64,000 bases of DNA from Caldisericia bacterium (GCA_030018355.1 JASEFN010000004.1:152291-216290), one strand, 5' to 3'. Numbered from the stretch's first letter, positions 15,867-50,155 are shown. The notes: a model not told the origin generated them from the letters alone. A program made the numbers and translations.

Positions 15867-15896
15867 GTTTCAATCCCTAATATGAGAACCAAAAAC
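15867..15896 (-). repeat. Orphan degenerate CRISPR repeat relic (GTTTCAATCCCTAATATGAGAACCAAAAAC), with 5 mismatches to the consensus.
   Basis: It is a 30-mer with the same ends as the array repeat (GTTTCAAT...AAAAAC). It is preceded by ...CTAAAAAC, a truncated repeat 3' end, and lies about 790 bp beyond the distal end of the array. Confidence 0.5.
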
Positions 15897-19600: not shown

Positions 19601-22600
19601 AGCTAAAAACTGACTTCAATTCTCATAGGTATTGCTTCAGTATTGAGTTTCAATCCCTCATAGGCGAGCTAAAAACTTTACCCTCTATTTCTTTTTAAAC
19701 TTACTCATTCCTCGTTTCAATCCCTCATAGGCGAGCTAAAAACTGATTTAAGTTTAGATGATCGAGTGAATATTTCAAAGTTTCAATCCCTCATAGGCGA
19801 GCTAAAAACAACATCACCTTTGTATTCTCCTTTTCCAACATAAACAGTTTCAATCCCTCATAGGCGAGCTAAAAACTATTTTACGAAGATGACAATTCAG
19901 ATTTAGTTGAAGGTTTCAATCCCTCATAGGCGAGCTAAAAACAATATAAAAAATGTTTGCTGTTGTTTTCTTATAATACGGTTTCAATCCCTCATAGGCG
20001 AGCTAAAAACCAAAAGAACATAAATAATAATCTTTTGTGCAGCTGCAGTTTCAATCCCTCATAGGCGAGCTAAAAACCCCATCTCAGAGTTAAGAAAGGC
20101 ATTTCTGAATTATCGTTTCAATCCCTCATAGGCGAGCTAAAAACCTGCTTTCTTTTTACTTCTTTTCTCTACTTTATCAAGTTTCAATCCCTCATAGGCG
20201 AGCTAAAAACTACACACTAAAGAACCAGTTTTCCCAACTAAGTTAAAGTTTCAATCCCTCATAGGCGAGCTAAAAACTGAATAAAAATAAGTATAAAGAA
20301 TTTGAAGATTTAGGTTTCAATCCCTCATAGGCGAGCTAAAAACGCGACACTTTTAACTCATTCCCTTCACGTTCAAATGGGTTTCAATCCCTCATAGGCG
20401 AGCTAAAAACAATAGAACAGGAGACGACATTGGTGTAGTATATGAGAGTTTCAATCCCTCATAGGCGAGCTAAAAACTTGTTAAGTTTTAGAAAAACATT
20501 ACCATTGTTTTCGGTTTCAATCCCTCATAGGCGAGCTAAAAACCAGACGTAGAAGTTACTTTTACCCCTGAAACTATACCGTTTCAATCCCTCATAGGCG
20601 AGCTAAAAACTACCATAGAAAGGGATACCTAAAAAACTACGTACTGAAGTTTCAATCCCTCATAGGCGAGCTAAAAACTATTTAATTATTTTTTCTTTTC
20701 TACAAGAATATTTTTGTTTCAATCCCTCATAGGCGAGCTAAAAACTTTATATTATTCTTTTTCTCTATTCAAGCATATTTTGTTTCAATCCCTCATAGGC
20801 GAGCTAAAAACTTTATTCTCTTCTACCTGCTGTTATTGAAGAGCCGAGTTTCAATCCCTCATAGGCGAGCTAAAAACTTTTTGTCGATTTAGAGGATGAT
20901 GGGGTAATAGAAAGTTTCAATCCCTCATAGGCGAGCTAAAAACATATAACCCCCCTAAATAACCCTGGGGGTGATCGCAGTTTCAATCCCTCATAGGCGA
21001 GCTAAAAACTATTCAACATCAATAAATAATGCTGCTTCTCTTTCAGGTTTCAATCCCTCATAGGCGAGCTAAAAACTTAAAAATTTGTAATAATTACAAT
21101 TTACATTTTTAAGTTTCAATCCCTCATAGGCGAGCTAAAAACGAATTTAAAAGAGAAGAGCAAATTACACCATTCCAATGTTTCAATCCCTCATAGGCGA
21201 GCTAAAAACTAGTTTTAAAATTTGACATTCTGGCTATCTTATCTAAGTTTCAATCCCTCATAGGCGAGCTAAAAACTAACAAAAATTTTTCCACATGTCA
21301 ACCTAAGGATTTAGTTTCAATCCCTCATAGGCGAGCTAAAAACTTTCATCGCTAAATTGTATGCCATCTATTTCGTTAGAAGTTTCAATCCCTCATAGGC
21401 GAGCTAAAAACTCCTAGAAAGTGAAAAAAGAGATTATTAATATATCGTTTCAATCCCTCATAGGCGAGCTAAAAACTGAAAATACAAAACATAAACATAA
21501 CTATAAAAGACGGTTTCAATCCCTCATAGGCGAGCTAAAAACCAATTGGAACATTTAATATAATTCCAGAAATTACATTGTTTCAATCCCTCATAGGCGA
21601 GCTAAAAACTTAAGTTATTATGGAAATTATGTTGAAGCTGTTCGTAGTTTCAATCCCTCATAGGCGAGCTAAAAACATAAAAAGACCATGAATAAAATGA
21701 TACTTAATCCAAGTTTCAATCCCTCATAGGCGAGCTAAAAACATTTTTATACTCAAAACTTTTGAGCAACAATGAACAGTTTCAATCCCTCATAGGCGAG
21801 CTAAAAACTTATGAATGTTATAATGGTTAAAATATTGAGAGAGTAGTTTCAATCCCTCATAGGCGAGCTAAAAACGAATATAATTTGGGAAAAGATAGAA
21901 AATATTATAAAGTGTTTCAATCCCTCATAGGCGAGCTAAAAACTTTTATGAAAGAAATGTAAGAGATGCAAATAATCTTTGTTTCAATCCCTCATAGGCG
22001 AGCTAAAAACCTTTCAAGACGTACTAAAATAATTAAAGAGGGGTTGAGTTTCAATCCCTCATAGGCGAGCTAAAAACTAAGATATAGTTTTATAGTTGAA
22101 CCTGTATCTGTAAAGTTTCAATCCCTCATAGGCGAGCTAAAAACGGTGTAATGTAATATGTTCTATTTCTATAAAACATAGTAGTTTCAATCCCTCATAG
22201 GCGAGCTAAAAACTATGATAAATATTCAAAAAATTAATATCGCCAGAAGGTAGTTTCAATCCCTCATAGGCGAGCTAAAAACGAAAATAAATAATTTTTA
22301 AAGGTCCCATCCTACTGAGTTTCAATCCCTCATAGGCGAGCTAAAAACTTTTATTTATCATATTACAAGCTTCTCTCAAAGTTATGGTTTCAATCCCTCA
22401 TAGGCGAGCTAAAAACAAATTTTTCTGAAAAAAGAGCATAACAAGTATAAATAGTTTCAATCCCTCATAGGCGAGCTAAAAACAATATTCGAGATTGCAA
22501 ATTATACAGGAGGTATAAAAGTTTCAATCCCTCATAGGCGAGCTAAAAACCTTGAAGCATTAGCAATAATGAGTCCAGTTAATAAGGTTTCAATCCCTCA

Positions 22601-23756
22601 TAGGCGAGCTAAAAACTCCAGACCTGCCACTATTTCATCGAAATTAATATCTGGTTTCAATCCCTCATAGGCGAGCTAAAAACTCAGGAAGGCTTAGTTG
22701 TTTATTACGATGATGGTGGTTTCAATCCCTCATAGGCGAGCTAAAAACCTCTAATATCATCTCTAAATTTTTCAAAAAGAGCAAGTTTCAATCCCTCATA
22801 GGCGAGCTAAAAACTAAAAAGGAAATCAGTTAATACGATGATGAGATGCTAGTTTCAATCCCTCATAGGCGAGCTAAAAACTAAGATAAAACTTTTCCTT
22901 TGAATATGAAATTAAATGGTTTCAATCCCTCATAGGCGAGCTAAAAACTGCCTTTTGAAACTTCTGTTCCTACTCCAACAACTCCGTTTCAATCCCTCAT
23001 AGGCGAGCTAAAAACGTGCACCTATGGATAATAAAAGGGTATGGTTTTTTAGGTTTCAATCCCTCATAGGCGAGCTAAAAACAAGAAAAGAAAAATGCTT
23101 AAAAATTATGGTTTTTTAAGGTTTCAATCCCTCATAGGCGAGCTAAAAACCCTCTTTCCAATTAGTGACATTAAACTCTTTTCTTTGGTTTCAATCCCTC
23201 ATAGGCGAGCTAAAAACGCAACTGAACAAGGAAGACTAAAAGATGCAGAAGCTCGTTTCAATCCCTCATAGGCGAGCTAAAAACGGAATATTCCAATTTT
23301 TTTTCCTTCAATGGATAGAATAGTTTCAATCCCTCATAGGCGAGCTAAAAACGACATAAAAGCAGAACAAATAACAGACTATATAGAACTCGTTTCAATC
23401 CCTCATAGGCGAGCTAAAAACTTAAGATTTTCAAGAATTTTTTTATACTCATTATCAAGTTTCAATCCCTCATAGGCGAGCTAAAAACTCCTGATAAAAC
23501 AACAACTTTAGGTGGATTATGAGGTTTCAATCCCTCATAGGCGAGCTAAAAACCGATTACTTACATTTTTACAGTTGCTCAAATAGTTTAGTTTCAATCC
23601 CTCATAGGCGAGCTAAAAACGAGGTATTGGAGGATACGAATTTTGATATTTTTATTGGGTTTCAATCCCTCATAGGCGAGCTAAAAACGAATTAGGTAGG
23701 AAACTAGAAGGGAAAGCACTTGTATAGTTTCAATCCCTCATAGGCGAGCTAAAAAC
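16688..23756 (-). CRISPR. CRISPR array of 106 direct repeats of 30 bp and 105 spacers of 35-39 bp. It is transcribed from the leader at the high-coordinate end.
   Basis: Repeats were counted by hand. The consensus on the + strand is GTTTCAATCCCTCATAGGCGAGCTAAAAAC, and the reverse complement ends in ATTGAAAC, the 8-nt crRNA handle. The distal repeat at 16688-16717 has 3 mismatches and the second (16757) has 1. This terminal-repeat decay, with cas2 and the leader at the other end, fixes the orientation. Confidence 0.97.
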
Positions 23757-23939: not shown

Positions 23940-24203
23940 TTATATAACAATCTCAGAACCTCCTTTTTTTAAACCTATTATTTCTCTTTGTGAATACATG
24001 GTTGTTCTTAATATATAAAAAATAACTGAGTCTTCTTCTTTATTAATTACTCTTAAAATTTCAGATTTAAGTTTTTCATATTTAGCAATTGTTATTTCGC
24101 CTTCTAAAACAGAATTTTGTATCCAATTTAAATATTTTCTTCCTATTTTTAATACTTTATTTACTCTCCTTTCATTTACATCATAAACCATGATAATATA
24201 CAT
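23940..24203 (-). CDS. cas2: CRISPR-associated endoribonuclease Cas2.
   Basis: 87 aa. N-terminus MYIIMVYDVNERR... is typical of Cas2. It is the last gene of the cas operon, next to the leader. Confidence 0.85.
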   Translation of the reverse strand: MYIIMVYDVNERRVNKVLKIGRKYLNWIQNSVLEGEITIAKYEKLKSEILRVINKEEDSVIFYILRTTMYSQREIIGLKKGGSEIVI

Positions 24204-24207
24204 TTAA

Positions 24208-25212
24208 TCACCACTCTGATATAAAAGGCTCATATTCTTCTTCACCAATTAAATGTTTTTCTAATTTATATAACTCTAATCTTAATATTCTTCTATATGA
24301 AACATCTTTACCAATTTTCCTATGTTTTATAGTTGTGTTTAATCTTTCCTCAAATTTTTCTATAAAAGTCCTCCTACCTTTCTCTTTTAAATATAACCCT
24401 CCAAGTTTTTGATCAAAATCTGATAAATCAATCATATTTTTATTCAAAAGATAAAAAATCACTCTATCTACAATAATAGGTTTAAAAATTTCTGAAATAT
24501 CTAAGTTTAATGTAAATCTTCTAAAATTAGTAGCATGCAAAAAACCAATTCTAGGATCTAAATGTGTTTTATAAATTTCTGATAGAATCGTGGTGTATAA
24601 AAGAGAATTGCCAAAACTAATTAATGCATTTAATCTATTTTTAGGTGGTTTTTTACTCCTTTCATCAAAAGAAAATTCTTCTTTATCAATGATTCTATCA
24701 AAAGCGTTATAATAAACTTCTCTTATGTTACCTTCTATTGCCATTAATTGCTCTATATTTTCACATTCATTAAACAGTTTTGTTAAATTTATTATTTTTG
24801 AAATAATATCACTTAAATCTACACCTCTTGAGTGGTAATAATTCAAGACCTTTTCTATGTTTGAAGCCGCACCATAGACAAATTTCTTTGCAAGATGAAA
24901 TCTTTTTTCAATGTCAATATAATGTTCTGCTTGCTTTAGAATCATATACCCTGAATTATAATGCTCACGAGGATAATAAGATCCAATATAATAACCATAA
25001 TAGTTGTAAAAATGTAAAATAACTTCATTTTGAGTTAAAAACTCTAATATCTCTTTATTAAATGTAACTTCTCCAAATATGTGTAGTTCATTTAAATTCT
25101 CTATTGGTAAGAATTTTTTAATACCACCCTCACCTTCAAAGTAGATAGTATTTTGTTTTCTTTTTAACTCACCATTTGTGAAAACAAAAATTCTCTCTTT
25201 CATGACCAACAA
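24208..25212 (-). CDS. cas1: CRISPR-associated integrase Cas1.
   Basis: 334 aa, positioned between cas4 and cas2. The sequence composition is Cas1-like (...GNSLLYTTILSEIY..., ...DRVIFYLLN...). Confidence 0.88.
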   Translation of the reverse strand: MLVMKERIFVFTNGELKRKQNTIYFEGEGGIKKFLPIENLNELHIFGEVTFNKEILEFLTQNEVILHFYNYYGYYIGSYYPREHYNSGYMILKQAEHYIDIEKRFHLAKKFVYGAASNIEKVLNYYHSRGVDLSDIISKIINLTKLFNECENIEQLMAIEGNIREVYYNAFDRIIDKEEFSFDERSKKPPKNRLNALISFGNSLLYTTILSEIYKTHLDPRIGFLHATNFRRFTLNLDISEIFKPIIVDRVIFYLLNKNMIDLSDFDQKLGGLYLKEKGRRTFIEKFEERLNTTIKHRKIGKDVSYRRILRLELYKLEKHLIGEEEYEPFISEW

Positions 25213-25694
25213 AATTCTCTAAAAGCACATCTTTTACAAAATCTATTTTTTTGAAGTTCTGGTGGTTTATCTAAAATTATTATCTTTTCTATTTCTTCAA
25301 TTGCTTTATCAATCTCTTTCTCTAATTGTTCATTTAATTCAACTTTTATAACTTTTCTTTCCTTAGGGATCAATAACTCACCTTTAGATTCTACTCCTAA
25401 CTCCTTTAATTTCTTTAGATAAAAAGCAAGTTGTAATATACTTGATTTTTCATATTTACTTGATTTTTTAATTTCACCTATGAGTAAATATTTTCCACTC
25501 TTTTTTATAAGATCAATCTTCATATTTTTAAAATTGTAAAATTTATTTGCTCTTTTATAAAAATTTTCTTCAATAACTCTTCCAAATTCAAGAAAAGAAT
25601 TATCTTGATCTGGATTTAGTTCTCTACTCATAAACCATACTTCTCTCTTGCATATATTAAAATACCAAATAAGAGTTCCAGTTATAGAGAACAC
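25200..25694 (-). CDS. cas4: Cas4 RecB-like nuclease with an Fe-S cluster.
   Basis: 164 aa. It has an N-terminal Cys and a C-terminal CKRCAFREFC cysteine triad, and lies between cas3 and cas1. Confidence 0.85.
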   Translation of the reverse strand: MFSITGTLIWYFNICKREVWFMSRELNPDQDNSFLEFGRVIEENFYKRANKFYNFKNMKIDLIKKSGKYLLIGEIKKSSKYEKSSILQLAFYLKKLKELGVESKGELLIPKERKVIKVELNEQLEKEIDKAIEEIEKIIILDKPPELQKNRFCKRCAFREFCWS

Positions 25695-25695
25695 T

Positions 25696-28173
25696 TTAAA
25701 TTATCCAAACACTTTTTTCACAACTTTTATATCCAATTTCCATATCATAGTTTTTCTCAGTTATGTACCCTAAATATGGTTCGATTAGAAACTCCTCAAC
25801 TTCTTTTTTAGGTACAGAAATTATAAAATTATAAAATTTATTTCTTATCTTTAAAAACTCATTTCTTCTTTTATATTTATCTTTAATCTTTCTTATCTCT
25901 TTATAATTTTTCCATATTTCACTTGACTCTTTGTTGATGTCAACAAATATATCAATCTTTGGCTCTTCATCTGTTATAAGTTGAAATTTACCAATTGTTG
26001 AAAACATTAACCTTTCCATTGCTTCTATATTTTCCTTTGATGAGTTTTCAGCTCCTCTTTCTAAGACTTTTTTAAAATATTCAGGTATTAATAAACCTAT
26101 TTCTTTTTCTCCAATTTGTTTATTTTTTAAATTTTCAAATATTTCTTTTGTTATTCCAATTAAAGTACTATCATAAATTCTACTAAAAGTCCTATTATTA
26201 TCTTTTAAATGTAAAATTTTTAAAACACCCTCATTTTTTTCATTGTTTCTGTTACATCTTCCTCCTGTTTGAATAATACAGTCAAAAGGAGCCATATCTC
26301 TATAAATTATATCTAAGTCTATATCAACTCCAGCCTCTATTAATTGAGTTGTAACTATTATTTTTCTTTTATCATTGCTGTTTTTAATATATCTTATTCT
26401 TTCTATTCTATGGATAGGTAAAATATGTGTTGAAAGATTAATTAAAATTAAGTTTTTGAATTCTAAAATTCCTTTTAATCCTTCATTTTCTATTTTATTT
26501 TTAGGCTCTCCGTATATTTTCTTTAATTCATCTTTTAAAAACTTATAGAGATCTTTTGAGGCATTTATTGTATTTACAACAATCCCAATATTTTTATTGC
26601 TTTCTAAAATTTCATTTAATAGATTTTTCTTAAATTCATCAAAATCTATCTCATCAGTATTTATCAAGTATTTCACTCTATTAAATTTTCCAAAATATTT
26701 ATTTTTGTCTTTTATCAAAGGAATAATTTCATCTTCTTTAAAAATAAAAGGTTGTGTTGCTGTCATCAAAATAAGCCAACTGTTATAATTATAAACGAGA
26801 TGTTTTAATGCCTCTTTCACTAAAAGCCAATATTCATAAGGAATAGATTGTACTTCATCTAAAATAATTATGGAATTTGCCATGTTATGGAACTTTCTCG
26901 CTGCTTTATTTCTATTTGTAATCAAACTGTGGAAAAATTGGACAAATGTAGTCATAATTATTTCTGAATGCCATCCTTCTATTAACAATAAAGATTTACT
27001 TGGATCATCTTCTAATTCCTCCTCACTTGTTATATATTTAATATCTATAAGATGGTGATGTTTTAAAAGTAGACTACTTGGTATTTTTTCTAATTTTTCC
27101 CTTTTTTCTTTTTCGTTCATTTTTAATAATTCTTTCCAGTTTGCAATTCCTGCATATTCTGCCAAAACCTCAGAAAATACATCTACATTTTGATCTATTA
27201 TGCTTAAAAAGGGAAGTGAATAAATTATTCTTGGTGTAGTACCTAATCGAGATTTAATAATATGTCTCAATTTTAATGCAAAAGATAAAACAGTTAATGT
27301 TTTTCCAAAACCTGTTGGTAATTCTATAGAAAAAATTCTTTCATTTTCCAAGTTTTTTTCAATTTCTTTTAGTCTTGAAATTATCTCCTTATATGAGTCA
27401 TTTCTTACAATATTTATTTTCTCCCCATCATCTGTAAATTTTACTTTTTTATAACGATCAACTAAGTCTGATGGAATATTAATCCACTTTTTTCTTTCTT
27501 CTTCCAACTTCTCAAAATCAATTTCTGATGCATCAAGTTTATCTGAATCCAACAAAACAGAGTATAGAAATAGAATCAAAAAATAGTTTTTAATATTACT
27601 TTCAAATGCTATTTTTTCTCCTTCTTTCTTTATTTCTTTACAAATATCTTCAAATTCTTCAAAAAATTCCTCTAAATTTATTTCAATCGGGCTTAAGTTA
27701 CTGTATATAGCATTCACTTCATTAAGATGAAATTGTCTAATATTATTTATTTTCTCCTTTTCTATATACAAATCATTTAATTTTTCTAATTCTCCTTGTG
27801 TTCCCATTAAATCTTCAAGATCAAGATGGTGTTTCATTATTACAAGCCATGAAATTAAAGAAATATTATAAGAGGTATTATTAAATTTTGTAAATTTTTT
27901 TATTAAATAATACCCAAAAATTGAAGACAATCTCCCATGATATGCTCTTTCAGTTTTTATACCAGTCTTAAGGTATTCTTGAAAATATGTTGTCGACTTT
28001 GCAAAATCATGAGAAATACCAATTAAATAAGATATTTCTGATAATAATTCTTTATCTTTTATTCCTTCTTTACTAAGCACTATTTTCTTAGAAATCTCAC
28101 CAACATTTTTTAAATGATGATATAGAAGTTTTTTTGGGTGTGATTTGAGCTTAAAATAAAATGACATTGACAT
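25696..28173 (-). CDS. cas3: Cas3 HD-nuclease/helicase fusion.
   Basis: 825 aa. N-terminal HD domain (HHLKNVG...IGISHDFAKST) is followed by DEAD/DEAH helicase motifs (PTGFGKT, ...IILDEVQ...). Confidence 0.9.
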   Translation of the reverse strand: MSMSFYFKLKSHPKKLLYHHLKNVGEISKKIVLSKEGIKDKELLSEISYLIGISHDFAKSTTYFQEYLKTGIKTERAYHGRLSSIFGYYLIKKFTKFNNTSYNISLISWLVIMKHHLDLEDLMGTQGELEKLNDLYIEKEKINNIRQFHLNEVNAIYSNLSPIEINLEEFFEEFEDICKEIKKEGEKIAFESNIKNYFLILFLYSVLLDSDKLDASEIDFEKLEEERKKWINIPSDLVDRYKKVKFTDDGEKINIVRNDSYKEIISRLKEIEKNLENERIFSIELPTGFGKTLTVLSFALKLRHIIKSRLGTTPRIIYSLPFLSIIDQNVDVFSEVLAEYAGIANWKELLKMNEKEKREKLEKIPSSLLLKHHHLIDIKYITSEEELEDDPSKSLLLIEGWHSEIIMTTFVQFFHSLITNRNKAARKFHNMANSIIILDEVQSIPYEYWLLVKEALKHLVYNYNSWLILMTATQPFIFKEDEIIPLIKDKNKYFGKFNRVKYLINTDEIDFDEFKKNLLNEILESNKNIGIVVNTINASKDLYKFLKDELKKIYGEPKNKIENEGLKGILEFKNLILINLSTHILPIHRIERIRYIKNSNDKRKIIVTTQLIEAGVDIDLDIIYRDMAPFDCIIQTGGRCNRNNEKNEGVLKILHLKDNNRTFSRIYDSTLIGITKEIFENLKNKQIGEKEIGLLIPEYFKKVLERGAENSSKENIEAMERLMFSTIGKFQLITDEEPKIDIFVDINKESSEIWKNYKEIRKIKDKYKRRNEFLKIRNKFYNFIISVPKKEVEEFLIEPYLGYITEKNYDMEIGYKSCEKSVWII

Positions 28174-28873
28174 CGATATTCTTGCCTATTACTTTATAAT
28201 AGTTTCCACTGATTATTTTTATTTTTTTTCCATCTTCTTCATATATCATCTCTAAAAAATCCTGTATAACTCTATTATTGTCCATAAATCCCGGGATTTT
28301 AATTTTTCCGTATCTTTTGCCTTCTTCTAATACAATTTTAATATCATTACTATTTTTAATGATAGATGATATTTCAACTATTTCATCTTCAGTATATTTT
28401 GGTTCAACCTCAAGTATATCAATATATTTGAAATTTGCTATGCACTCTGAAATTCCAAGGTAAGGAGTATAGATAGACTTATGTTCTTTTAAGAGACGCG
28501 CTAGATCATCTAAATTTTCTTTCATCCATAAATAAATTCTGTATTTTGGTTCTTTAAGATATTCAAAAGGAATCTGTGTTCTTTGTCCCTTATTATCCCA
28601 TAAATAAAAACCTGTTTTTGTATCAATTAAATTTTGTGTAATCTTTATCCTTTTTATAGGGTTTATAATTTGTAAAGCAATGGCACTATTATCTTTACTA
28701 AATAAGTTATAATAACTATCTCTTGGTAATCCTATTATTGCAGCTATCATTCCAGAAAGAGCAGTTCGTGGAGGAAAGGGGTAAGTTAATGGAGATGTTG
28801 TTGTATAACCTCTCCTAAAATGTGCATAATCTCCCCAAACATCAAAGACAAGAACTTTATTTATATCAGGCAT
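28151..28873 (-). CDS. cas5: Cas5 (type I-B, Cas5h/Cas5t).
   Basis: 240 aa. N-terminus MPDINKVLVFDVWGDYAHFRR...TYPFPPRTALSGMIAAIIG is characteristic of Cas5. Confidence 0.8.
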   Translation of the reverse strand: MPDINKVLVFDVWGDYAHFRRGYTTTSPLTYPFPPRTALSGMIAAIIGLPRDSYYNLFSKDNSAIALQIINPIKRIKITQNLIDTKTGFYLWDNKGQRTQIPFEYLKEPKYRIYLWMKENLDDLARLLKEHKSIYTPYLGISECIANFKYIDILEVEPKYTEDEIVEISSIIKNSNDIKIVLEEGKRYGKIKIPGFMDNNRVIQDFLEMIYEEDGKKIKIISGNYYKVIGKNIDVNVILF

Positions 28874-28880
28874 TTTTTCT

Positions 28881-29918
28881 TTACTTATCCAAGTTAAGCT
28901 CTTTTATCTTATCCTTCAATTCTACAATACTTTTTAAACCCTCTATTAGTGCTTTTTTACCTCGGTATTCCCTATCATCAACTTTAAACAGAACTTTATC
29001 ATTTGCTTCTATTTGAACTTCTTTTATTCTATCACTTTTTTCTTTTAATATTGTTACAAGATCTGATAACTCCACTTTTACCTCATCGATACTTCTTAAA
29101 GTTTTTCCATTTCTCCCATCTTTATCAATCTCTTTCCCATTAATATCGAGAAGTTTTATCTCTTTATCCAAATCACCAATATGATAATTTTTTTCATTAT
29201 AAATTACACGTAATAATAATCTAGGGACTTGACCTATTTTGGATCTAGTAATGAGATTTTTGGTTCCATTCCACATTCCATCAAGGAGTTCATTTATATC
29301 CTCTTCCGTTAGTTTTGTATCTTTGGCTGCATTTTCATTAATCAAACCATAAAAGCAAATTAAAGAATAAGGTACTATCCATGATTCAGTAAATGACCCA
29401 CCTGCTTTCATTTCTTGTGTTGGTAATACACTTGTTCCTTTAATAAAAACAGGCTCAACTTTATGAAGGGAATGTCCAAATCTAAACTGTACAGGTCCTA
29501 TCCAAGTGAATACTTTTTCTCCTTTTCTTTTTGTTTTTCCAACCTCTTCGATTTCCTCTTCCTCCCCTTTTCTTTCTTTAGGTTGTTTGCCAGCTATAGT
29601 TGCACCAAAAAGTCTTAAATCAATATACTTCTCTAAAAGATTCACTGCATTAGCTTTATTTTTTATCCCGGCTTCCTCTAATTTCTTTTCTCTTGTTTTC
29701 CTTGATCCGTCTTCTTCAATTTCTTCCTTTAGCCAGATATCTTTTCCTTTGAATTTAGCTAAATAGTCTCTTATTGTTCTCTTTAATCTAACATCAGTCA
29801 CAATGTTTATTTCAGTTTCTACATCTAAACGTGGTTTATTCTCATCTGGATCTCCATTAGGATTTGCATCTTTAACATCATACAAAAAAATTAACTCAGA
29901 TCTTCTTACTACATCCAT
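28881..29918 (-). CDS. cas7: Cas7 (type I-B backbone protein, Csh2/Cst2/DevR family).
   Basis: 345 aa. N-terminus ...LIFLYDVKDANPNGDPDENKPR... is the conserved Cas7-I-B signature. Confidence 0.85.
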   Translation of the reverse strand: MDVVRRSELIFLYDVKDANPNGDPDENKPRLDVETEINIVTDVRLKRTIRDYLAKFKGKDIWLKEEIEEDGSRKTREKKLEEAGIKNKANAVNLLEKYIDLRLFGATIAGKQPKERKGEEEEIEEVGKTKRKGEKVFTWIGPVQFRFGHSLHKVEPVFIKGTSVLPTQEMKAGGSFTESWIVPYSLICFYGLINENAAKDTKLTEEDINELLDGMWNGTKNLITRSKIGQVPRLLLRVIYNEKNYHIGDLDKEIKLLDINGKEIDKDGRNGKTLRSIDEVKVELSDLVTILKEKSDRIKEVQIEANDKVLFKVDDREYRGKKALIEGLKSIVELKDKIKELNLDK

Positions 29919-29940
29919 AATAATTAACCTCCTTTTTTAT

Positions 29941-31800
29941 TTATTTTTTTGATTCAAATATAAACATTTCATTAAGAGTTATTCCTAAAGCAAAATAATA
30001 ACTTATTTCATCTTTTGGTATATTCCACTTATTTCCAGCTTTAACTAAGAATTTGGCAGCAATTTCCTCAAGTTCTTCAAAACCTACTTTGTATTGTCTT
30101 AATTTATTGATTGCCTCCGTAAAGATATTTTTTATTCTTCGTTCATCCATCATTAATCCATGTAGTTTATCCCAAAATGGCTCTTCCCCAAATTTTGTTT
30201 TTCTTTCTTTCCTTTGGACTCCTAGTAAATATCCTACTAACATTCCAACAGAGAAGGCCGCTTTTGATGGGGTATCAAATTGATATTCTTTAAAGAAATT
30301 TTCTATTCTTTCTTCAAACTTTTCTTCGCCCATTTTTATAACCTCCTTTTCTAATCTTTCTTCTATATTTTCATCTATTAATAATTTTAACTCTCGAAAG
30401 AATAAATAAAGCATAAATGACTTTAAACAAAGAACTTTCATATTATAAAAATCATTATCTTTAATCGCGTTCCTTATTTCTCTTACAAAGGCTGAAATTA
30501 GGAAATCTTTATTAATTCTTCTATTTGATAGAATAGAACGAGTTATCTCTCTAAAATATTTCTCGTAAATTCCATGTGTTCTTGAAAAAGGAAAGAAATT
30601 TCTAGTAAATACTATAAACCAGTTATTTATTCCTAAACCTTTATCTTTTTTAGTTCTTCCTTTTACAAAGTCTCCGTGCCAATCTTTACCCAATATTTTT
30701 TTGATATTCTCCTCTTGAAATATATCTTTTTTTCTAATATTTTCTTGGATCCTATCAATTTTTTTAATCCATGATGGAAGGACATCTTCTACATATTGAA
30801 CAATATCAATATATTTTCCACCACCTTTTTTGCTATAAAAAATAAAAATCAATCTCAAATCATCCTTTTTCTCTTCAAGTGTTTTTTCTAACCAATCTTC
30901 TTTACTTAAGAGCCCTTCTTCATATTCTTTATCTTTAAAGAATTCAATGTATTTATAGAATTCGTCAAATAATTCACCATACATAAATTTAGGAAGAACA
31001 TAATAATTACAACCAAAGAAATTATTTTCCTCTTTCTTGGGGAAATTTAGATATAAATCTAAAAATCTTTTCCCAATCTCTAAAAATTTTGCACAATCTT
31101 TACAAATTGGTATATATTTCCAGTGATCTGTTTGAACAAAAGAAGGTGTAAACCCAGGTTTATCTGATGTAGCAAAGGAGAATCCAAAAGCAGGTAAAAC
31201 AAAACCATAAAGATCTTTATGTTCTTTACATAAGAAACAAATACCTTTTCCTTTCGACTCCCCTATAGATTTTAAAAAATAATATTTTTTAGATGCATCT
31301 TCAACTAAAATTTTTCTAAATATTTCTATTTCTCCTAAATGTTTCTCCTTACCATTCTCTTCTATTTTTATTGTCAATAATACATTTTTTCTTTCATCTT
31401 TATGAAAATTCTCATATTCTTTTATTAAAGCTTCAATTATTTTACCTTTATTATTTTCTAAAATTTCTCTAATTTCTTTTACTTCACTTTCTTTCTGATC
31501 ATTAAACCATTTTATGATTTTATTTTCAAATGTTTTATTAACTTTTTCAGTGATTAATGAAGAAGGTAAAATATCTTTTCCTCTTCCAGACCCTCCACGA
31601 TAAAGAATAGGCTTATCAACTGAGTAAGGTTCAGAAATTACCTTTTTGTAAAAATATTTACCATCTTCCGTTTTTTGTAAAAGTATACATAAAATCTTCT
31701 TTGTTTTTGAAAGTTTTGCTTTGTCCAAAAAAATTTCTATTTCACTCTTATTATCTTTTTTACTTATATGCTCTCCAATCTCTTTTAAAGCGTCAATCAT
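29941..31800 (-). CDS. cas8b: Cas8b large subunit (Csh1/Cst1-like).
   Basis: 619 aa, encoded between cas6 and cas7 in canonical I-B order. Internal cysteine cluster (CFLCKEHK...CKDCAKF). The call rests mainly on position and size. Confidence 0.7.
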   Translation of the reverse strand: MIDALKEIGEHISKKDNKSEIEIFLDKAKLSKTKKILCILLQKTEDGKYFYKKVISEPYSVDKPILYRGGSGRGKDILPSSLITEKVNKTFENKIIKWFNDQKESEVKEIREILENNKGKIIEALIKEYENFHKDERKNVLLTIKIEENGKEKHLGEIEIFRKILVEDASKKYYFLKSIGESKGKGICFLCKEHKDLYGFVLPAFGFSFATSDKPGFTPSFVQTDHWKYIPICKDCAKFLEIGKRFLDLYLNFPKKEENNFFGCNYYVLPKFMYGELFDEFYKYIEFFKDKEYEEGLLSKEDWLEKTLEEKKDDLRLIFIFYSKKGGGKYIDIVQYVEDVLPSWIKKIDRIQENIRKKDIFQEENIKKILGKDWHGDFVKGRTKKDKGLGINNWFIVFTRNFFPFSRTHGIYEKYFREITRSILSNRRINKDFLISAFVREIRNAIKDNDFYNMKVLCLKSFMLYLFFRELKLLIDENIEERLEKEVIKMGEEKFEERIENFFKEYQFDTPSKAAFSVGMLVGYLLGVQRKERKTKFGEEPFWDKLHGLMMDERRIKNIFTEAINKLRQYKVGFEELEEIAAKFLVKAGNKWNIPKDEISYYFALGITLNEMFIFESKK

Positions 31801-32576
31801 TCTATCTCACCTCCTTTATAAATTTCCCATAAACCAAAACCTTCTGAGTTTCTATCACCCAAACCTGTATCATAAGATAAACTTATAAGTTGTTGAGAAC
31901 CATCTAATTCAAATATACCATCATATGCTTCAATTGGTGTGTTTTTAAATTTAATAAGATGGAAGTTTGATTTTATTGAAAAATAGATTGGCTTTATTTC
32001 AAATTTTGTACATTCTGGATCTTTTCCGTAAAGTGCTCTAAATTTTTTAATTAAATTTTGAGTTAATAATGAATTGAATGCTTTTTCGATAGGTTTATAA
32101 TAAATACTTCTTTTATTTCCATCTTGAAGTTCAATTGTTGAGTGAATAGTAACTGGAGATAAAAATTTAATTTTTAAAGGTGCTTCTAATCTTGGCGTCA
32201 TATAAACTCTAATTTTTGATAAGTATATTCTATTTTTAAGTAAAGTAAACTCTCTTTCCTTTATACTTTTCTCCCCAAGATCTGATACTATCTCTTCTTT
32301 TGGTGAAGAGAAAATAAAAGAAATTGAATTTTTAAAAATCAAAAAATCTTGATCTTTTAATTTTACTTTTTCACCCTTTTCTAAAATTCTTGAAAATGTA
32401 AAAAATTTAAAACTTCTCTTTTCAAATTTAAAACCATCGTTATGAAGTTTCGTTGCAAGAATTGGAGAAAATATTTTATAAATTAATGATTGAATGTAAA
32501 AATTATAATGCACAGGCAAAATAATTTTTCCATTTAGACTTTCAAAAGATATCTCAATTCTCATCATATCCTCCAT
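31797..32576 (-). CDS. cas6: Cas6 crRNA endoribonuclease.
   Basis: 259 aa. C-terminal glycine-rich loop GLGDRNSEGFGLWEI. It is the first gene of the cas operon. Confidence 0.8.
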   Translation of the reverse strand: MEDMMRIEISFESLNGKIILPVHYNFYIQSLIYKIFSPILATKLHNDGFKFEKRSFKFFTFSRILEKGEKVKLKDQDFLIFKNSISFIFSSPKEEIVSDLGEKSIKEREFTLLKNRIYLSKIRVYMTPRLEAPLKIKFLSPVTIHSTIELQDGNKRSIYYKPIEKAFNSLLTQNLIKKFRALYGKDPECTKFEIKPIYFSIKSNFHLIKFKNTPIEAYDGIFELDGSQQLISLSYDTGLGDRNSEGFGLWEIYKGGEIE

Positions 32577-32609
32577 TTTAATATTTTTAGGGTGAAAAAT
32601 AAGTTCCCT

Positions 32610-33575
32610 TTACCTCTTATATAATTTTTCCAATTTTTTAATTTCCTCAATAATTTCATCTCTAAATGATTCTGGCTCTAAAACCTCTACATGACTACCA
32701 TAACCAATTATCCATCTTTTAATTTCATTTCTATTTCCATTTATTTTTAAAATTATACTTCCATCATCTAATTCTTTAATTTCTTGACTTTCGTGCCATA
32801 TTCTTTCTTTTATCCATTTTGATTGATAGGAATCAAATTTCAACTTTATTGTTTCTATTTCACCCTTATAAATCCTAAATGCTTGATTTAAATAATTTTT
32901 GATATTAAAATTTTTATCTCTTTCAAATCTTTCGTTTAAAATCTCTATTTCTTTGATTCTATCTAATGCAAAATCTCTAAACTCATTCCTTTTATGACAA
33001 AAAGCAACAAGATACCAAATTCCTTCTGAGTTGTAAATATGATAGGGATCTAAAATTCTCTCACTTGTTTCATCTCTTGTGATTGTATAGTAAACAATTT
33101 TAATTCTTCTGTTTTCTCTTATTGCTTTGAAAATCTTATCAAAGGTTTTTAATATATCTTTTTTTATTTTTATTGGCGATATGCTTACAGATAAAATATT
33201 TTCTAAATCTTCACTACTTATTATTAAATTTTCAGGAAGAAGTTCTTGCAATTTTCTTGTTAAAGTTTTTGCTGTCTCGAAAAATGGGGTTGATTTAAAT
33301 TCTTTTAAAATATTATTAGCAATAAAAAGGGTCAAAATTTCTCCTGCAGAAAGAAAGTTTAATGGAAAATTCCAATCTTCTTTAAAATAATATCCACCAT
33401 TCTTTTTTGAATAAAAAATAGGAGCGTTGAATGTGTATTTAAGAGTTTGAATATCTTTTTTTATTGTTCTCTTTGAGACCTCCTCTTCTTCTGATAGTTC
33501 ATCTACAGATGGATATTTCCCATCTTTTATTTTTTTATAAATTCTAAAAAGCCTCCCGAGTTCAAATCTTTTCAT
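32610..33575 (-). CDS. HTH-WYL-WCX domain transcriptional regulator (PafBC/BrxR/CapW-like ligand-sensing regulator).
   Basis: N-terminal DeoR-type wHTH (...VSKRTIKKDIQTL...) is followed by a central WYL motif (DPYHIYNSEGIWYLVAFCHKRNEFRDFALDRI). It is 321 aa and its stop lies 33 bp upstream of the cas6 start. Confidence 0.75.
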   Translation of the reverse strand: MKRFELGRLFRIYKKIKDGKYPSVDELSEEEEVSKRTIKKDIQTLKYTFNAPIFYSKKNGGYYFKEDWNFPLNFLSAGEILTLFIANNILKEFKSTPFFETAKTLTRKLQELLPENLIISSEDLENILSVSISPIKIKKDILKTFDKIFKAIRENRRIKIVYYTITRDETSERILDPYHIYNSEGIWYLVAFCHKRNEFRDFALDRIKEIEILNERFERDKNFNIKNYLNQAFRIYKGEIETIKLKFDSYQSKWIKERIWHESQEIKELDDGSIILKINGNRNEIKRWIIGYGSHVEVLEPESFRDEIIEEIKKLEKLYKR

Positions 33576-35539
33576 ATCTGTTTTTTCTTAAATTGAACAG
33601 TTTCTTGAGTTGGTTTAAAGTTTAATTTTTTCGAAATATCATTAATTAATGAAAAAATGTATTGTTGAGAATAATCTGAAAAACCTTTGTTTTTTAAATT
33701 TTTATAAACTGTTTCTTTTTTTATAAAAACTTTTGATTGAGCATTTTCAAGTAAAATATTTTCTATTTCTTTTTCTATATTTTTTAATTGTATTTGAGGT
33801 TTAATTTTTGGGTTTAGAATTAAATCAAAATCAATCCCACTTTGTTTTAATAATGTTTTTAAATCTTCAAAATTGAATTCACTTAAATCAAATATTTCAG
33901 ATAAATTGATAAGATAGGAAAGATAAGCAAGTTCTGTATTATTTAATTCATCTTTTCTTAATATTCTATAACTTATAAACATATCTATTGAAACATCTTC
34001 AAGTGGTGATTTTGTTATCCAATATAGATATCTATTTTGATTTTCTTTTAAAATTTCAATTCTTGATTTTATATCATCATACCCTACTCTTCCTTCTTTC
34101 ATTTTAATTTCGAAAATAACCTCATAAGGTGGTTCATAATATTTCATAACTTTAAGTAAAATATCTGCGGAGTAATTTAAAATTTTAACTTCAGAGTCTG
34201 CTTCAATAAAGATTTTATTTGATTCAAAATATTTTTTTAAGTAATTAAAAATTTGTGATAACTTCTCATTTATAAATTGAGAACTCTTCTCTTGTTTAAC
34301 CCTTTTTTCCAATTCATTTCTAAAGAATTCACACTCTAATTCATTAAGATTGACTTTATCTTTTTTAAATTCTTTTATAAAATTTTTAATATCATAATAA
34401 TAAGTTATTTTTCCATTCTTTCTTATTTTTTCAATTAAATCAAAAATATTTCTCAAAGTGTCTCTCAAATCTCTTCTATTGTAATCATATAAAAACTTTA
34501 AAGTATCCTTATTAAAAATTCCTAAAATATTATCTGGTGGTAAAGCTCCTTCTTGAATATAATCTTTCCAAAATTTATTAAATGCACTTTTTATTAAATC
34601 TACAAAATTATCTGGATTTAAATTTTCAAAATAAATTGGATAAAACCAATCTTCAATTCTTTTCCTTTCATTTTGACTTAAACTTTGAATAAATTCATCA
34701 TAAAATGTAGAAGATCCTGCAAAAATAAGTGTAAAATTTTTTAATAATGTTGAATCATTTCTAAATCCCATCAAAATTTTATATAAACTTCTATATATTT
34801 TTTCATTTCTTTCATAAATATCAAAATCATCAATCATTAAAACTGTATGAGTGATTTCTAAATAATTTTTTAAAAATTTTGAAAAATTACCTAATTTCGT
34901 GATAGCATCCATCTCATTTTTTGAATTTACTAAATCTGAAGAGGGTATTTCATTTGGTACCTCTTGATCATTGTAAAAGAAATTTTCATAATATATTTCA
35001 GTTGGTGAGGGTGAAGTTGATGATATAACAAAACTAATTATTTTAGGATAACTTCTTAAAATTGGTGGAAGATTCCCCACTTCTTTTTTTAATTTATTTA
35101 ATAAAATATTTAATTCTTCTTCTGTTTCTGGTTTCTTCAAAAATATATAATTACATTCTTTAAAAATTTTATCTTGTATCTCATTCAAGATTTTAGAATA
35201 AAATAGTTCTTTTAAATAATTTTTATAAATGTATGAGAAATTAAGTTCCTCTAAATCTATTGGAAATTTCATGTAAACATATAAAATGTTACTCTTCGGA
35301 TATGAGTATTTTCTTTTAAAATTTCTGAGGAAAGTTGTTTTACCTTTTCCTTGATCTCCTAAAATAAAGATTAAAAATCCACTATTTTCAATTATTGCTT
35401 TATTTACAAATTCTAAAAGTTCTTCTTCCTCCTTTTCTCGATTTATAAAACCAAATTTTTCATCTAAATCAACATAAGGAGGCGGAGGTATTGGATTTGG
35501 AAGATTTTTATCTAATAAAACGCTTTCCCAACTCTTCAT
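33572..35539 (-). CDS. P-loop NTPase, archaeal-type AAA (Arch_ATPase/PF01637-like N-terminal module) with a large uncharacterised C-terminal region.
   Basis: FINREKEEEELLEFV...GFLIFILGDQGKGKTTFLRNF gives an FxxRExEL lead-in plus a Walker A. Walker B is VLMIDDFDIYE, and sensor-1-like IFAGSS follows. It is 655 aa and overlaps both neighbours by 4 nt. Confidence 0.55.
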   Translation of the reverse strand: MKSWESVLLDKNLPNPIPPPPYVDLDEKFGFINREKEEEELLEFVNKAIIENSGFLIFILGDQGKGKTTFLRNFKRKYSYPKSNILYVYMKFPIDLEELNFSYIYKNYLKELFYSKILNEIQDKIFKECNYIFLKKPETEEELNILLNKLKKEVGNLPPILRSYPKIISFVISSTSPSPTEIYYENFFYNDQEVPNEIPSSDLVNSKNEMDAITKLGNFSKFLKNYLEITHTVLMIDDFDIYERNEKIYRSLYKILMGFRNDSTLLKNFTLIFAGSSTFYDEFIQSLSQNERKRIEDWFYPIYFENLNPDNFVDLIKSAFNKFWKDYIQEGALPPDNILGIFNKDTLKFLYDYNRRDLRDTLRNIFDLIEKIRKNGKITYYYDIKNFIKEFKKDKVNLNELECEFFRNELEKRVKQEKSSQFINEKLSQIFNYLKKYFESNKIFIEADSEVKILNYSADILLKVMKYYEPPYEVIFEIKMKEGRVGYDDIKSRIEILKENQNRYLYWITKSPLEDVSIDMFISYRILRKDELNNTELAYLSYLINLSEIFDLSEFNFEDLKTLLKQSGIDFDLILNPKIKPQIQLKNIEKEIENILLENAQSKVFIKKETVYKNLKNKGFSDYSQQYIFSLINDISKKLNFKPTQETVQFKKKQI

Positions 35540-36156
35540 TTTTTAAATTTTAAATAATAATAACTTTTACCATCAGGAGTGACCAAATTTCCTTCTTTTT
35601 TATCACCATATTCAAGTAAAATCTCATCTTTCAGAAAAAGATTGTATATTGCATTGTGAACTTCTTGAACACTTACGCCATATCTTTGAATCAAACTTGA
35701 AACTATTGATGGTATTGGAACAAGACCAGCTAAATATGAATAATTTTTAGTTGATAGTTCTTTGTAAACTCTATAAATCTCATCAAAAAGATTAACTTTT
35801 TCTCCAAATTTTGTTAAGGTTTCTTTCTTTATGGATAGAATTTTAATTAGATTCTCAAGATTTTCATTTAATTTTTTGATTTCAGATTGAAGATCATTTA
35901 TTCTATCTTTTACAAAATTTTCAAAACTATCTTTTTCCATTCTTTTAATAAACTCAATTTCACCTTTTTCAGTAATAAAGAACTTTTCGCCTCTTCCAAC
36001 TTTTTCTGATTTTGCAAATCCATCTTTTATTAATTTGCTTAGAATTTCTTTAAATTTTTCACCAGAAGGTAAATCTTTTTTTCCAACACCATCTTTTCTT
36101 TTCTCTATTAATTTACTTAATATTTTATTAACCTCCTTCTCCATCTTTTCCTCCAT
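35536..36156 (-). CDS. Hypothetical 206-aa protein. It has a possible N-terminal winged-helix, a coiled-coil middle region and a C-terminal globular domain.
   Basis: It overlaps the downstream ATPase gene by 4 nt. The sequence has KILSKLIKDGFAKSEKVGRGEKFFITEKGEIEF (wH-like) and a helical heptad region. No catalytic motif was recognised. Confidence 0.4.
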   Translation of the reverse strand: MEEKMEKEVNKILSKLIEKRKDGVGKKDLPSGEKFKEILSKLIKDGFAKSEKVGRGEKFFITEKGEIEFIKRMEKDSFENFVKDRINDLQSEIKKLNENLENLIKILSIKKETLTKFGEKVNLFDEIYRVYKELSTKNYSYLAGLVPIPSIVSSLIQRYGVSVQEVHNAIYNLFLKDEILLEYGDKKEGNLVTPDGKSYYYLKFKK

Positions 36157-36288
36157 TAATTTATAAGTTTATTTTCATTTTACTATAAATATTCTATTAA
36201 AAAATTTTAAAATTATTCTAATTAATTATAATTCCTACAACTTTTAAAAAGGTTCCCATAATAGATTCTCCCTCCTTGATTTTAAATT

Positions 36289-38837: not shown

Positions 38838-38883
38838 TCAAATCTCCTTTTTGTTAATTATAAAACATATAATAACTAATTTC

Positions 38884-38916
38884 ATGTTACAAAAGTGTCT
38901 GACACCTTTGTAACAT
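38884..38916. repeat. 33-bp palindromic element, copy 1 (ATGTTACAAAAGTGTCTGACACCTTTGTAACAT).
   Basis: It has 16-bp arms with 1 mismatch. It lies in the divergent intergenic region between the yhhN-like gene start and the FMN riboswitch. Confidence 0.8.
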
Positions 38917-38980
38917 AAGAAGATAATAAGTGAAATTCAAAAATTAAGTAAATGTGATAAAATTAAAAAAGTTAACATAA

Positions 38981-39150
38981 AACCTTCGGGGTCGGGTGGA
39001 ATTCCCTACCGGTGGTAATGGGTTGAGTTAATTTAACTCAACCTTAGCCCACGAGCGTCTCTTCTTCAAAGAGAAGAGATGCAGATTTGGGTGAGATTCC
39101 CGAGCCGACGGTGAAAGTCCGGATGGGAGAAGGTTCCCTCCCCGAAGTCA
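38981..39150 (+). promoter_or_regulatory. FMN riboswitch (RFN element).
   Basis: It matches the RFN consensus blocks: ...CGGGGTCGGGTGGAATTCCCTACCGGTGGTAATGGG...AGCCCACGAGCG...GCAGATTTGGGTGAGATTCCCGAGCCGACGGTGAAAGTCCGGATGGGAGAAGG...CCCCGAAG. The P1 stem is ccttcgggg/ccccgaagg. A CCCTCC anti-RBS lies opposite the GGAGGG RBS of the downstream gene. Confidence 0.8.
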
Positions 39151-43959: not shown

Positions 43960-44076
43960 CCTTCTTATCAAGAGTGGCGGAGGGAACTGGCCCTGTGAAG
44001 CCCGGCAACCTGTGTCTCAAAGGCATAAGGTGCCAAATCCAGCAGGCTCAATATTTGCCTGGGAGATAAGAAGGTT
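43960..44076 (+). promoter_or_regulatory. SAM-I riboswitch (S-box).
   Basis: TTCTTATCAAGAGTGGCGGAGGGAACTGGCCCTGTGAAGCCCGGCAACC...GGTGCCAAATCCAGCAGGC...GGGAGATAAGAAG matches the S-box consensus. It sits directly upstream of metK. Confidence 0.85.
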
Positions 44077-50030: not shown

Positions 50031-50090
50031 TTTAATATACCTCCTTAAAAATTAAATTTTATATATACCACTTCTCAAATTTTTGTCAAC

Positions 50091-50155
50091 ATGTTACAAA
50101 AGTGTCAGGCACCTTTGTAACATGTTACTATGGTGTCAGGCACCATTGTAACATG
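50091..50155. repeat. Tandem pair of 33-bp palindromic elements (copies 3 and 4). They overlap at a palindromic GTAACATGTTAC junction.
   Basis: ATGTTACAAAAGTGTCAGGCACCTTTGTAACAT and catGTTACTATGGTGTCAGGCACCATTGTAACATGG. They lie in the divergent glnA / DUF296 promoter region, 2 nt upstream of a TATAAT box. Confidence 0.8.

Follow-up and report, generated by a model that had tools for sequence, protein, structure and literature searches.

An ORC/Cdc6-like ATPase with a probable nuclease domain and its small partner protein: a rare two-gene module found in front of a WYL-cas operon in Caldisericia

The DNA analyzed here is a 64,000-nucleotide (nt) stretch from a Caldisericia bacterium (GCA_030018355.1, JASEFN010000004.1:152291-216290; hereafter the window), in which a type I-B cas operon is directly preceded by three genes of the minus strand. 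The question raised by this locus is whether the first two of them, encoding a 206-amino-acid (aa) protein and a 655-aa P-loop NTPase, serve CRISPR-Cas or constitute a system of their own. An earlier note on this DNA had left both options standing, namely a new Cas-associated accessory module or an independent two-gene defence system sharing the third gene, an HTH-WYL-WCX regulator. Our results show that the pair is a genuine two-gene module encountered across two domains of life; whether the genes at 35536-36156 and 33572-35539 also make up a self-contained nucleoside triphosphate (NTP)-dependent nuclease module of the defence type, inserted before the WYL gene and the cas genes, we regard as about evenly balanced.

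The three open reading frames (ORFs), located at 35536..36156, 33572..35539 and 32610..33575, encode products of 206, 655 and 321 aa, respectively; each shares a 4-nt overlap with its neighbor, and 33 nt separate the WYL stop codon from the annotated start of cas6 (32576). Coordinates, strand, overlaps and spacing are thus as first reported, the true start of cas6 being probably codon 4 or 5, which gives a WYL-cas6 gap of 42-45 nt. Gene order is preserved in at least seven other Caldisericia loci, where the orthologues are 45-63% identical, and for this reason we take the three genes to be real. In the case of the small protein, all the homologues begin at the equivalent of M5 and a GGAGG precedes this codon, thus the real product is probably 202 aa long and starts at 36144.

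35536..36156, minus strand: small partner gene; 206-aa ORF, probable start M5 at 36144, 202 aa
33572..35539, minus strand: ATPase-nuclease gene; 655 aa, with an ORC/Cdc6-like AAA+ core carrying a helical insert, a lid and helical region, a PD-(D/E)xK-like domain and a C-terminal winged helix
32610..33575, minus strand: HTH-WYL-WCX transcription regulator; 321 aa, identified by Pfam and PADLOC

A word-indexed search of 5.8 billion proteins recovered few relatives, 12 for the ATPase and 16 for the partner, which came from Caldisericia (including Caldisericum exile) or from one metagenome-assembled genome labelled 'Nitrososphaerota'. The archaeal origin of the homologue in locus L004 (GCA_038850765) was rejected, since its PEPCK is 91.6% identical to that of the window and its synteny is that of Caldisericia; it is probably a mis-binned bacterial contig. 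The exhaustive profile search, covering 1.84 billion representatives, placed the ATPase family in 37 clusters, including a full-length family of 640-880 aa at ~20% identity, and a scan of one genome per species gave 14 Asgard loci, belonging to Heimdall-, Hel- and Promethearchaeota (Lokiarchaeota) and to Sigynarchaeum.

In all the Caldisericia loci the partner gene is located directly upstream of the ATPase gene and on the same strand. Of the 14 Asgard loci, 11 have a same-strand ORF of 160-223 aa immediately upstream of the ATPase; each of these products is recognized by the 206-aa protein profile, the similarity residing in the C-terminal winged helix (E 3.5e-13 to 9e-5; hhalign, 97.8%). The third subfamily, recovered from metagenomes only, has an upstream partner in each of its five loci; the profile of the Asgard partners recognizes four of these five proteins (E 8e-11 to 5e-4), and the five-sequence alignment reached 85% against it in hhalign. 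Outside Caldisericia the partner is therefore found upstream in 16 of 19 loci. The pair is a rare autonomous module, with a sporadic distribution in both domains of life. Identity between orthologues is 45-63% for the pair, 63-71% for the WYL protein and 84-91% for the adjoining PEPCK, values which indicate, at the sequence level, that the pair is fast-evolving and accessory in character.

The assignment of the 655-aa protein as an NTPase with Walker A and Walker B motifs was borne out, and the key residues proved invariant across the family.

35333..35359, minus strand: Walker A motif GDQGKGKTT, residues 61-69; G64, G66 and K67 invariant in the alignments
34820..34846, minus strand: Walker B motif VLMIDDFD, residues 232-240; D237 invariant in the alignments

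In the family alignment of 19 sequences, R34, which belongs to a GRExE-like motif, is invariant together with these four residues, and R260 and R359 are conserved in at least 90%. The protein displays an AAA+ fold with a lid in addition to both Walker motifs, and its fold-search lists were filled by AAA+ matches, the listed figures being 16 for Cdc6/ORC, 13 for the N-terminal ATPase of BrxC (313 residues aligned), ~12.5 for TnsC and MuB, 11.8 for Avs5, 11.3 for RdrA and ~11 for the archaeal ATPases 2qen and 2fna. Against the Pfam family AAA_16 the window ATPase scored 23.0 bits, the cut-off being 32.6, a value exceeded by distant members of the family (P0043, 59.6; P0034, 41.0; P0033, 38.7). 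The ATPase of the window also carries a helical insert of ~130 residues. Ahead of the AAA+ domain, a motif LLxxxxNP(F/I)PxPP (residues 8-21 of the ATPase; 35477-35518, minus strand) was observed in nearly all members of the three clades; the partner might dock on this peptide.

The C-terminal region of ~400 aa, which had been left as uncharacterised, could now be resolved into the lid, a helical region, a probable Mrr-like PD-(D/E)xK nuclease and a winged helix.

33950..34219, minus strand: probable Mrr-like PD-(D/E)xK nuclease domain, residues ~441-530, with E450, D459 and E477-x-K479
33590..33778, minus strand: C-terminal winged-helix-like domain of the ATPase-nuclease, residues ~588-650

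In the AlphaFold2 (AF2) model the nuclease-like domain comprises three beta strands (443-453, 456-466 and 472-479), an alpha helix (487-499) and a further strand (503-509), with helices preceding them; model and alignments together give an alpha-beta-beta-beta-alpha-beta core having D on beta-2 and (D/E/Q)xK on beta-3. Residues E450, D459, E477 and K479 are invariant among the orthologues. When 17 sequences of the domain were aligned, the D and the K were the only invariant columns, position 477 being E or Q in all members; distant relatives read HEP ... KPDV ... IEVK or FQVK, that is, E / PD / (E/Q)xK. Scanning the members singly against Pfam gave matches to Mrr_cat_2 in 8 of 17, to Mrr_cat in 6 of 17 and to PDDEXK_9 in one, all of them below the cut-offs; a precomputed PDDEXK_9 match is on record for P0004, and the window protein itself had no Pfam match to Mrr_cat or Mrr_cat_2. 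AspBHI was the sole nuclease among the weak PDB sequence matches (E 0.38), its catalytic E-A-K being in register with the (E/Q)-V-K of the family. Taking alignments and model together, residues 441-530 are a probable Mrr-type PD-(D/E)xK nuclease domain. The C-terminal winged helix (in the AF2 model, helix 588-600, strand 605-607, helices 608-617 and 625-638, and strand 647-649) is kept at the C-terminus of most family members.

As regards the small partner, the winged-helix-like N-terminus and the coiled coil described previously hold: its layout consists of an N-terminal winged helix (residues 1-72), a long coiled-coil helix (75-117) and a C-terminal winged helix (123-204). Its N-terminus is what changes from clade to clade: the Caldisericia proteins have a winged helix there, the one of L016 has HhH repeats, that of L013 carries a SAP-like motif, and those of L033, L036 and L037 a zinc ribbon. 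Coiled coil and C-terminal winged helix are retained throughout.

To place the pair among known systems we compared the two proteins with Pfam, NCBIfam, PADLOC and PHROGs, which returned only sub-threshold matches or coiled-coil noise (NBP1, LmuC, mad8). This agrees with the earlier note, according to which they matched no canonical type I-B component or Cas accessory; in Pfam, NCBIfam and PADLOC the same holds for defence profiles. For the 655-aa protein the NCBIfam result was limited to Hda, a relative of DnaA, at a score far below threshold (E 0.021; 14.3 bits, cut-off 194.8), and nothing significant came from searching PDB sequences with the family profiles. The pair is not described in the literature searched, which dealt with WYL and type I-B accessories, the CRISPR of Caldisericum exile, AAA_16/Mrr/STAND proteins and Asgard defence; it is unnamed in any source and, as far as sequence comparison can tell, without a solved relative.

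Among defence systems, modules combining an ATPase with a nuclease are a familiar type, and there are fusions of AAA+ ATPases to restriction-fold domains, such as ATPase_2/DUF234 (COG1672) and AAA_14/DUF4143 (COG1373). In these two families an archaeal-type AAA+ is fused to a restriction-endonuclease fold, and the PADLOC candidates PDC-S27 and PDC-S01 are among them. Membership of ATPase_2/DUF234 was rejected: neither Pfam domain matches, and in hhalign the alignment with the C. exile member is confined to 58 columns around the P-loop; the window protein is moreover longer and has the ~130-residue insert, the N-terminal LLxxxxNP(F/I)PxPP and an obligate small partner gene. It resembles type IV restriction (McrBC, and the catalytic domain of Mrr and MspJI/AspBHI) in coupling an AAA+ NTPase to a PD-(D/E)xK nuclease with no methyltransferase attached, and, PDDEXK_9 aside, the weak matches of the nuclease domain are all to Mrr_cat, Mrr_cat_2 or AspBHI. 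Unlike McrBC, its ATPase is of the ORC/Cdc6/AAA_16 type and not a McrB GTPase, ATPase and nuclease are in one chain, and no McrB or McrC profile matches.

The pair also differs from Avs and other STAND proteins, since neither Pfam nor the AF2 model shows a C-terminal repeat sensor (TPR, WD40, LRR) and the effector-like domain stands at the C-terminus instead of the N-terminus; NACHT and nSTAND matches of the window protein were below their cut-offs. It differs from BREX (BrxC) and RADAR (RdrA) in lacking PglX, PglZ or RdrB partners and any PADLOC match to them. The match to mad8 of the MADS system (E 2e-4, 18.9 bits) was discarded because it covers the ATPase core only, no mad1-7 genes are adjacent and the same weak match appears in distant members. 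Orc1/Cdc6 membership was rejected too: no Cdc6/ORC Pfam family is among the matches listed up to E 0.1, and 37 clusters in 1.84 billion do not make a core family; the added probable nuclease domain, the rare, sporadic distribution and the defence-island location further separate the protein from those initiators. Profile and alignment comparisons thus place the pair outside ATPase_2/DUF234, AAA_14/DUF4143, Avs, BrxC, McrBC and mad8.

The third gene was correctly recognized as an HTH-WYL-WCX regulator, all three domains scoring above their Pfam cut-offs (HTH_11, 35.3 bits against 25; WYL, 85.4 against 21.8; WCX, 62.1 against 23.9). The PADLOC profile for Cas-associated WYL proteins matches it with E 2.3e-49, and 107 homologues were found. 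In Dictyoglomaceae (L032) a 54%-identical WYL gene heads cas6-cas8b-cas7-cas5-cas3-cas4 without the pair, a cas-adjacent WYL gene being thus present in independent lineages; other close WYL paralogues stand by themselves, away from cas (L029, L030). Since Dictyoglomaceae carry WYL-cas without the pair, the WYL gene belongs with the cas operon and the WYL-cas6 unit is independent of the pair. As in BrxR-BREX, CapW-CBASS and Cas-associated WYL loci, the regulator shares a transcription unit with defence genes, here upstream of cas and with an operator-like element at the junction; unlike in other WYL-regulated defence operons, it is the last gene of the upstream unit and not the first.

32577..32612, minus strand: WYL/cas6 junction, with the element AAAGGGAAC-N8-TCAC(CCT) followed by an A/T-rich -10-like stretch; probable cas promoter/operator

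A block AAAGGGAC-N8-(G/T)TCAC, followed by a -10-like A/T stretch, is conserved at this junction across the Caldisericia loci (seven compared), and the Dictyoglomaceae junction contains the related AGGGTC-N7-GACCT. The exact element occurs as a single copy in the 64 kb of the window, at 32592-32610. When seven other Caldisericia loci were tested, six had a stricter form of the motif, exactly once per locus of 11-22 kb and always at the WYL/cas6 junction; the copies of L010 and of the window diverge from the stricter motif yet align within the block. Because the conserved element sits once per locus at this junction, it is probably a separate promoter or operator of the cas genes, and it is likely to be a site for WYL, that is, a candidate operator. 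A second copy upstream of the pair, which would mean shared control by WYL, was present neither in the window nor in the other loci; a single transcript from 36.2 kb through cas2 is in consequence possible and not required. To call the three genes fused to the front of the cas operon, as had been done, is thus too simple, given the WYL-cas6 unit without the pair in Dictyoglomaceae and an element suggestive of the cas genes having a promoter/operator of their own.

Evidence on the part played by CRISPR-Cas comes from the neighborhoods of the pair.

23940..32576, minus strand: type I-B cas operon, cas6-cas8b-cas7-cas5-cas3-cas4-cas1-cas2; context, outside the pair, assigned from Pfam Cas6 and Cas_TM1802, ORFs and synteny with annotated relatives

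The cas8b gene of the window corresponds to the Cas_TM1802 match (Pfam, E 1e-107); beyond cas2 there is a CRISPR array of 104 repeats of 30 nt (16757-23756), and on the upstream side of the pair lie PEPCK and a YhhN membrane protein (Pfam). A complete Hma candidate defence system (helicase, methylase, ATPase) follows beyond the array at 6881-15422 on the minus strand, composed of HmaA, an SNF2 helicase with NOV_C (1104 aa, PADLOC E 3e-211), HmaB, a DUF1156 adenine methylase (898 aa, E 2e-139), and HmaC, a DUF499-like ATPase (845 aa, E 2e-123); the window is therefore a defence island.

Every Caldisericia locus except that of C. exile has the order PEPCK, variable inserts, partner, ATPase, WYL and cas I-B. 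The inserts of L004 are a ZorD/DpdE-like SNF2 helicase and a 276-aa coiled-coil protein, located upstream of the pair. Deletion has left of the cas operon of L027 (Caldisericia GCA_020049655) only a cas6 stump of 153 aa (8014-8475), after which comes a glycosyltransferase; partner, ATPase, WYL and junction motif are retained. The pair of C. exile has no WYL gene and lies between two cas6 copies; it adjoins a different type I operon and also an ATPase_2/DUF234 gene, for which PADLOC gives a match to its candidate PDC-S27. A tblastn search for remains of a WYL gene downstream of this pair gave no match. As a separate observation on this locus (L001), the two 256-aa cas6 copies (5719-6489 and 15430-16200) flank a trypsin-like protein, the pair and the PDC-S27-type ATPase_2/DUF234 gene; the segment resembles the outcome of a duplication or of an insertion, with the cas6 repeats as its borders.

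Among the 14 Asgard loci, 13 have no WYL or cas genes nearby. The pair of one Helarchaeota locus, L013, is divergent from cas genes next door (Cas6, Cas_CXXC_CXXC and DevR/Cas7; listed as cas6/cas8a/cas7), L015 has a NERD-UvrD helicase and L017 has NurA-HerA. Between the two options of an accessory module and an independent two-gene system, these 13 Asgard loci, L027 and C. exile favor the independent module. The pair is probably not an obligate Cas accessory, and in Caldisericia it is probably co-regulated with CRISPR immunity and not part of CRISPR.

A mechanism can be proposed for a module of this kind. The product of the first gene, an adaptor, would dimerise via its coiled coil, its variable head binding DNA and its conserved winged helix docking on the ATPase. 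On binding ATP, the AAA+ module would assemble on DNA as an oligomer, in the manner of ORC/Cdc6, TnsC or MuB, and the oligomer would bring the nuclease domains together so that DNA is cut, in an NTP-dependent defence that may be restriction-like or abortive-infection-like. In an ancestor of the Caldisericia clade, the module would have been inserted immediately upstream of a WYL gene heading a type I-B cas operon; the pair now forms one transcription unit with WYL (4-nt overlaps or 2-nt gaps), and the cas genes would retain their own promoter/operator at the WYL/cas6 junction, probably bound by WYL.

Other explanations deserve to be weighed. It is distinctly improbable that the pair is a dedicated accessory of type I-B CRISPR-Cas, one for example feeding adaptation or backing interference and co-regulated with cas through WYL. 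Tight packing with WYL directly upstream of cas6 in at least seven Caldisericia loci, at 45-63% identity, would fit such a role, as would the C. exile pair between two cas6 copies beside another type I operon and the one Helarchaeota pair divergent from cas6/cas8a/cas7; however, within the DNA available, several contigs being short, no cas genes accompany it in 13 of 14 Asgard loci or in any of the five third-clade loci, L027 keeps pair and WYL after loss of cas, the WYL-cas I-B of Dictyoglomaceae does without the pair, and the cas association in Caldisericia amounts to one syntenic lineage. Nor did the Cas-associated accessory sets of PADLOC match the ATPase, and the partner gave against PADLOC weak partial CARF3 matches alone (E 0.013-0.014, residues 36-66). 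A purely regulatory role appears improbable as well. Here the C-terminal domain would be a degenerate, non-catalytic PD-(D/E)xK fold and ATPase, small protein and WYL would jointly control cas transcription, a reading suggested by the winged-helix or HTH modules of all three proteins, by their co-transcription with a regulator and by the sub-threshold matches on which the nuclease assignment rests. Against it, the catalytic D and K are invariant and the E/Q conserved in three clades at ~20% identity, the pattern expected of selection on catalysis, and the pair is also present where there is no WYL/cas operon to regulate.

An involvement in DNA maintenance or in a mobile element, with an ORC/Cdc6- or TnsC/MuB-like loading ATPase and a nuclease acting in replication, repair or integration, we consider unlikely, even with replication initiators, TnsC and MuB as the best structural matches of the ATPase. 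SAP-like, HhH and zinc-ribbon heads such as those of the partner are common in repair and chromatin proteins, one Asgard locus adjoins NurA-HerA and the Asgard neighbors are mostly non-defence; yet the pair is too rare and sporadic for a core function, there is no transposase or integrase beside it in the loci examined and no relative on viral contigs, its position next to PEPCK, stable over deep Caldisericia divergence, argues against an active mobile element, and the window ATPase has no Pfam match to Cdc6/ORC even at E 0.1. Kinship with a housekeeping pair and the lack of enrichment near defence genes, which the earlier note had named as what would overturn a new defence system, came about by half: the ORC/Cdc6-like fold and the little defence context outside Caldisericia point that way, whereas a protein from a family so rare and patchy in its occurrence, and with a probable nuclease domain besides, is not a housekeeping initiator. 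Each of these three explanations is less well supported than the defence module.

Several observations also weigh against the defence module itself. The best scores against the Mrr_cat families were 18.7 bits (cut-off 21) and 17.5 bits (cut-off 22), the domain has no statistically significant match to any nuclease family, and in Caldisericia the glutamate typical of alpha-1 of the fold is N424/E425 and not a clean E. Beyond the weak mad8 match of the ATPase core (E 2e-4) no defence profile matches, no methyltransferase or other self/non-self component accompanies the pair, and viral contigs scanned with both subfamily alignments held no relatives. The Caldisericia loci other than C. exile are syntenic and represent one ancestral insertion, thus roughly one cas-association event; the Asgard neighbors are mostly housekeeping or membrane genes (RnfC, ABC and MFS transporters, DUF3604, flavodoxin), and guilt by association is weak outside Caldisericia. 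The promoter scan found no promoter of the pair, and in L002 the gap between the pair and PEPCK is just 30 nt.

36157..36288, minus strand: upstream intergenic region, A/T-rich, holding a 13-codon gene remnant at 36218-36259

Promoter-like matches in this A/T-rich region were not above chance (116 against 99 expected), promoter and terminator scans being uninformative at 25% G+C, with counts near the shuffled expectation; Rfam gave no structured RNA match in the intergenic DNA between 32 and 37 kb. The mini-ORF MGTFLKVVGIIIN* at 36218-36259 (minus strand) has 13 codons and a strong ribosome-binding site. It is a remnant of a gene for a membrane protein of ~100 aa with two transmembrane segments, as seen by comparison with MGTFLTVVGIIVIVL... 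in L006 and MGVFLKIFGILFI... in L010; the intact gene lies between PEPCK and the pair in L006 (9037-9345), L010 (3662-3964) and L027 (4092-4412).

With regard to the cas genes, a sharp step in identity within the operon was observed when the window (29941-31800) was compared with L002, L004, L006, L009 and L010: cas6 is 62-73% identical, cas8b 24-26%, cas7 37-40% and cas3 35-40%, which suggests that the effector module was exchanged and the WYL-cas6 head upstream of it conserved. The array, a very large one, is probably transcribed in the minus-strand orientation, ending in ATTGAAAC, with the leader next to cas2; on the plus strand the repeat is GTTTCAATCCCTCATAGGCGAGCTAAAAAC. Elsewhere in the window, related palindromes GTTACAAA(A/G)GTGTCAG(A/G)CAC... 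are found at 38882-38918, which scores as a terminator-like hairpin with a 17-bp stem, and at 50082-50155, which scores as a tandem repeat of 2.4 copies; they may represent a dispersed element resembling repetitive extragenic palindromes or miniature inverted-repeat transposable elements. An FMN riboswitch (38978-39138, plus strand, 100.9 bits) precedes an ECF-type transporter gene, and a SAM riboswitch (43962-44072, plus strand, 93 bits) precedes the gene at 44112; both are ordinary features.

A broader proposal, which we put forward tentatively and hold to be rather less probable than the defence module as such, is that of an undescribed autonomous immune module common to Asgard archaea and Caldisericia, in which an ORC-like AAA+ switch licenses an Mrr-type nuclease and an exchangeable DNA-binding adaptor provides the targeting, and in which the innate nuclease and type I-B immunity of Caldisericia have come under one ligand-sensing WYL regulator. 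If the pair restricts invading DNA, it would be a new compact NTPase-nuclease architecture, in which an ORC-like ATPase is combined with a nuclease of the restriction type and with a DNA-binding adaptor that can be swapped. Asgard archaea are the closest prokaryotic relatives of eukaryotes, and the pair would then be a rare defence module common to them and to a deep bacterial phylum, as well as a natural example for the study of how a WYL sensor links CRISPR-Cas with an innate nuclease; what such systems recognise could be approached directly through the adaptor and its exchangeable head. If the function is not defence, the family would still be that of an unnamed ORC-like ATPase with a probable nuclease domain in Asgard archaea.

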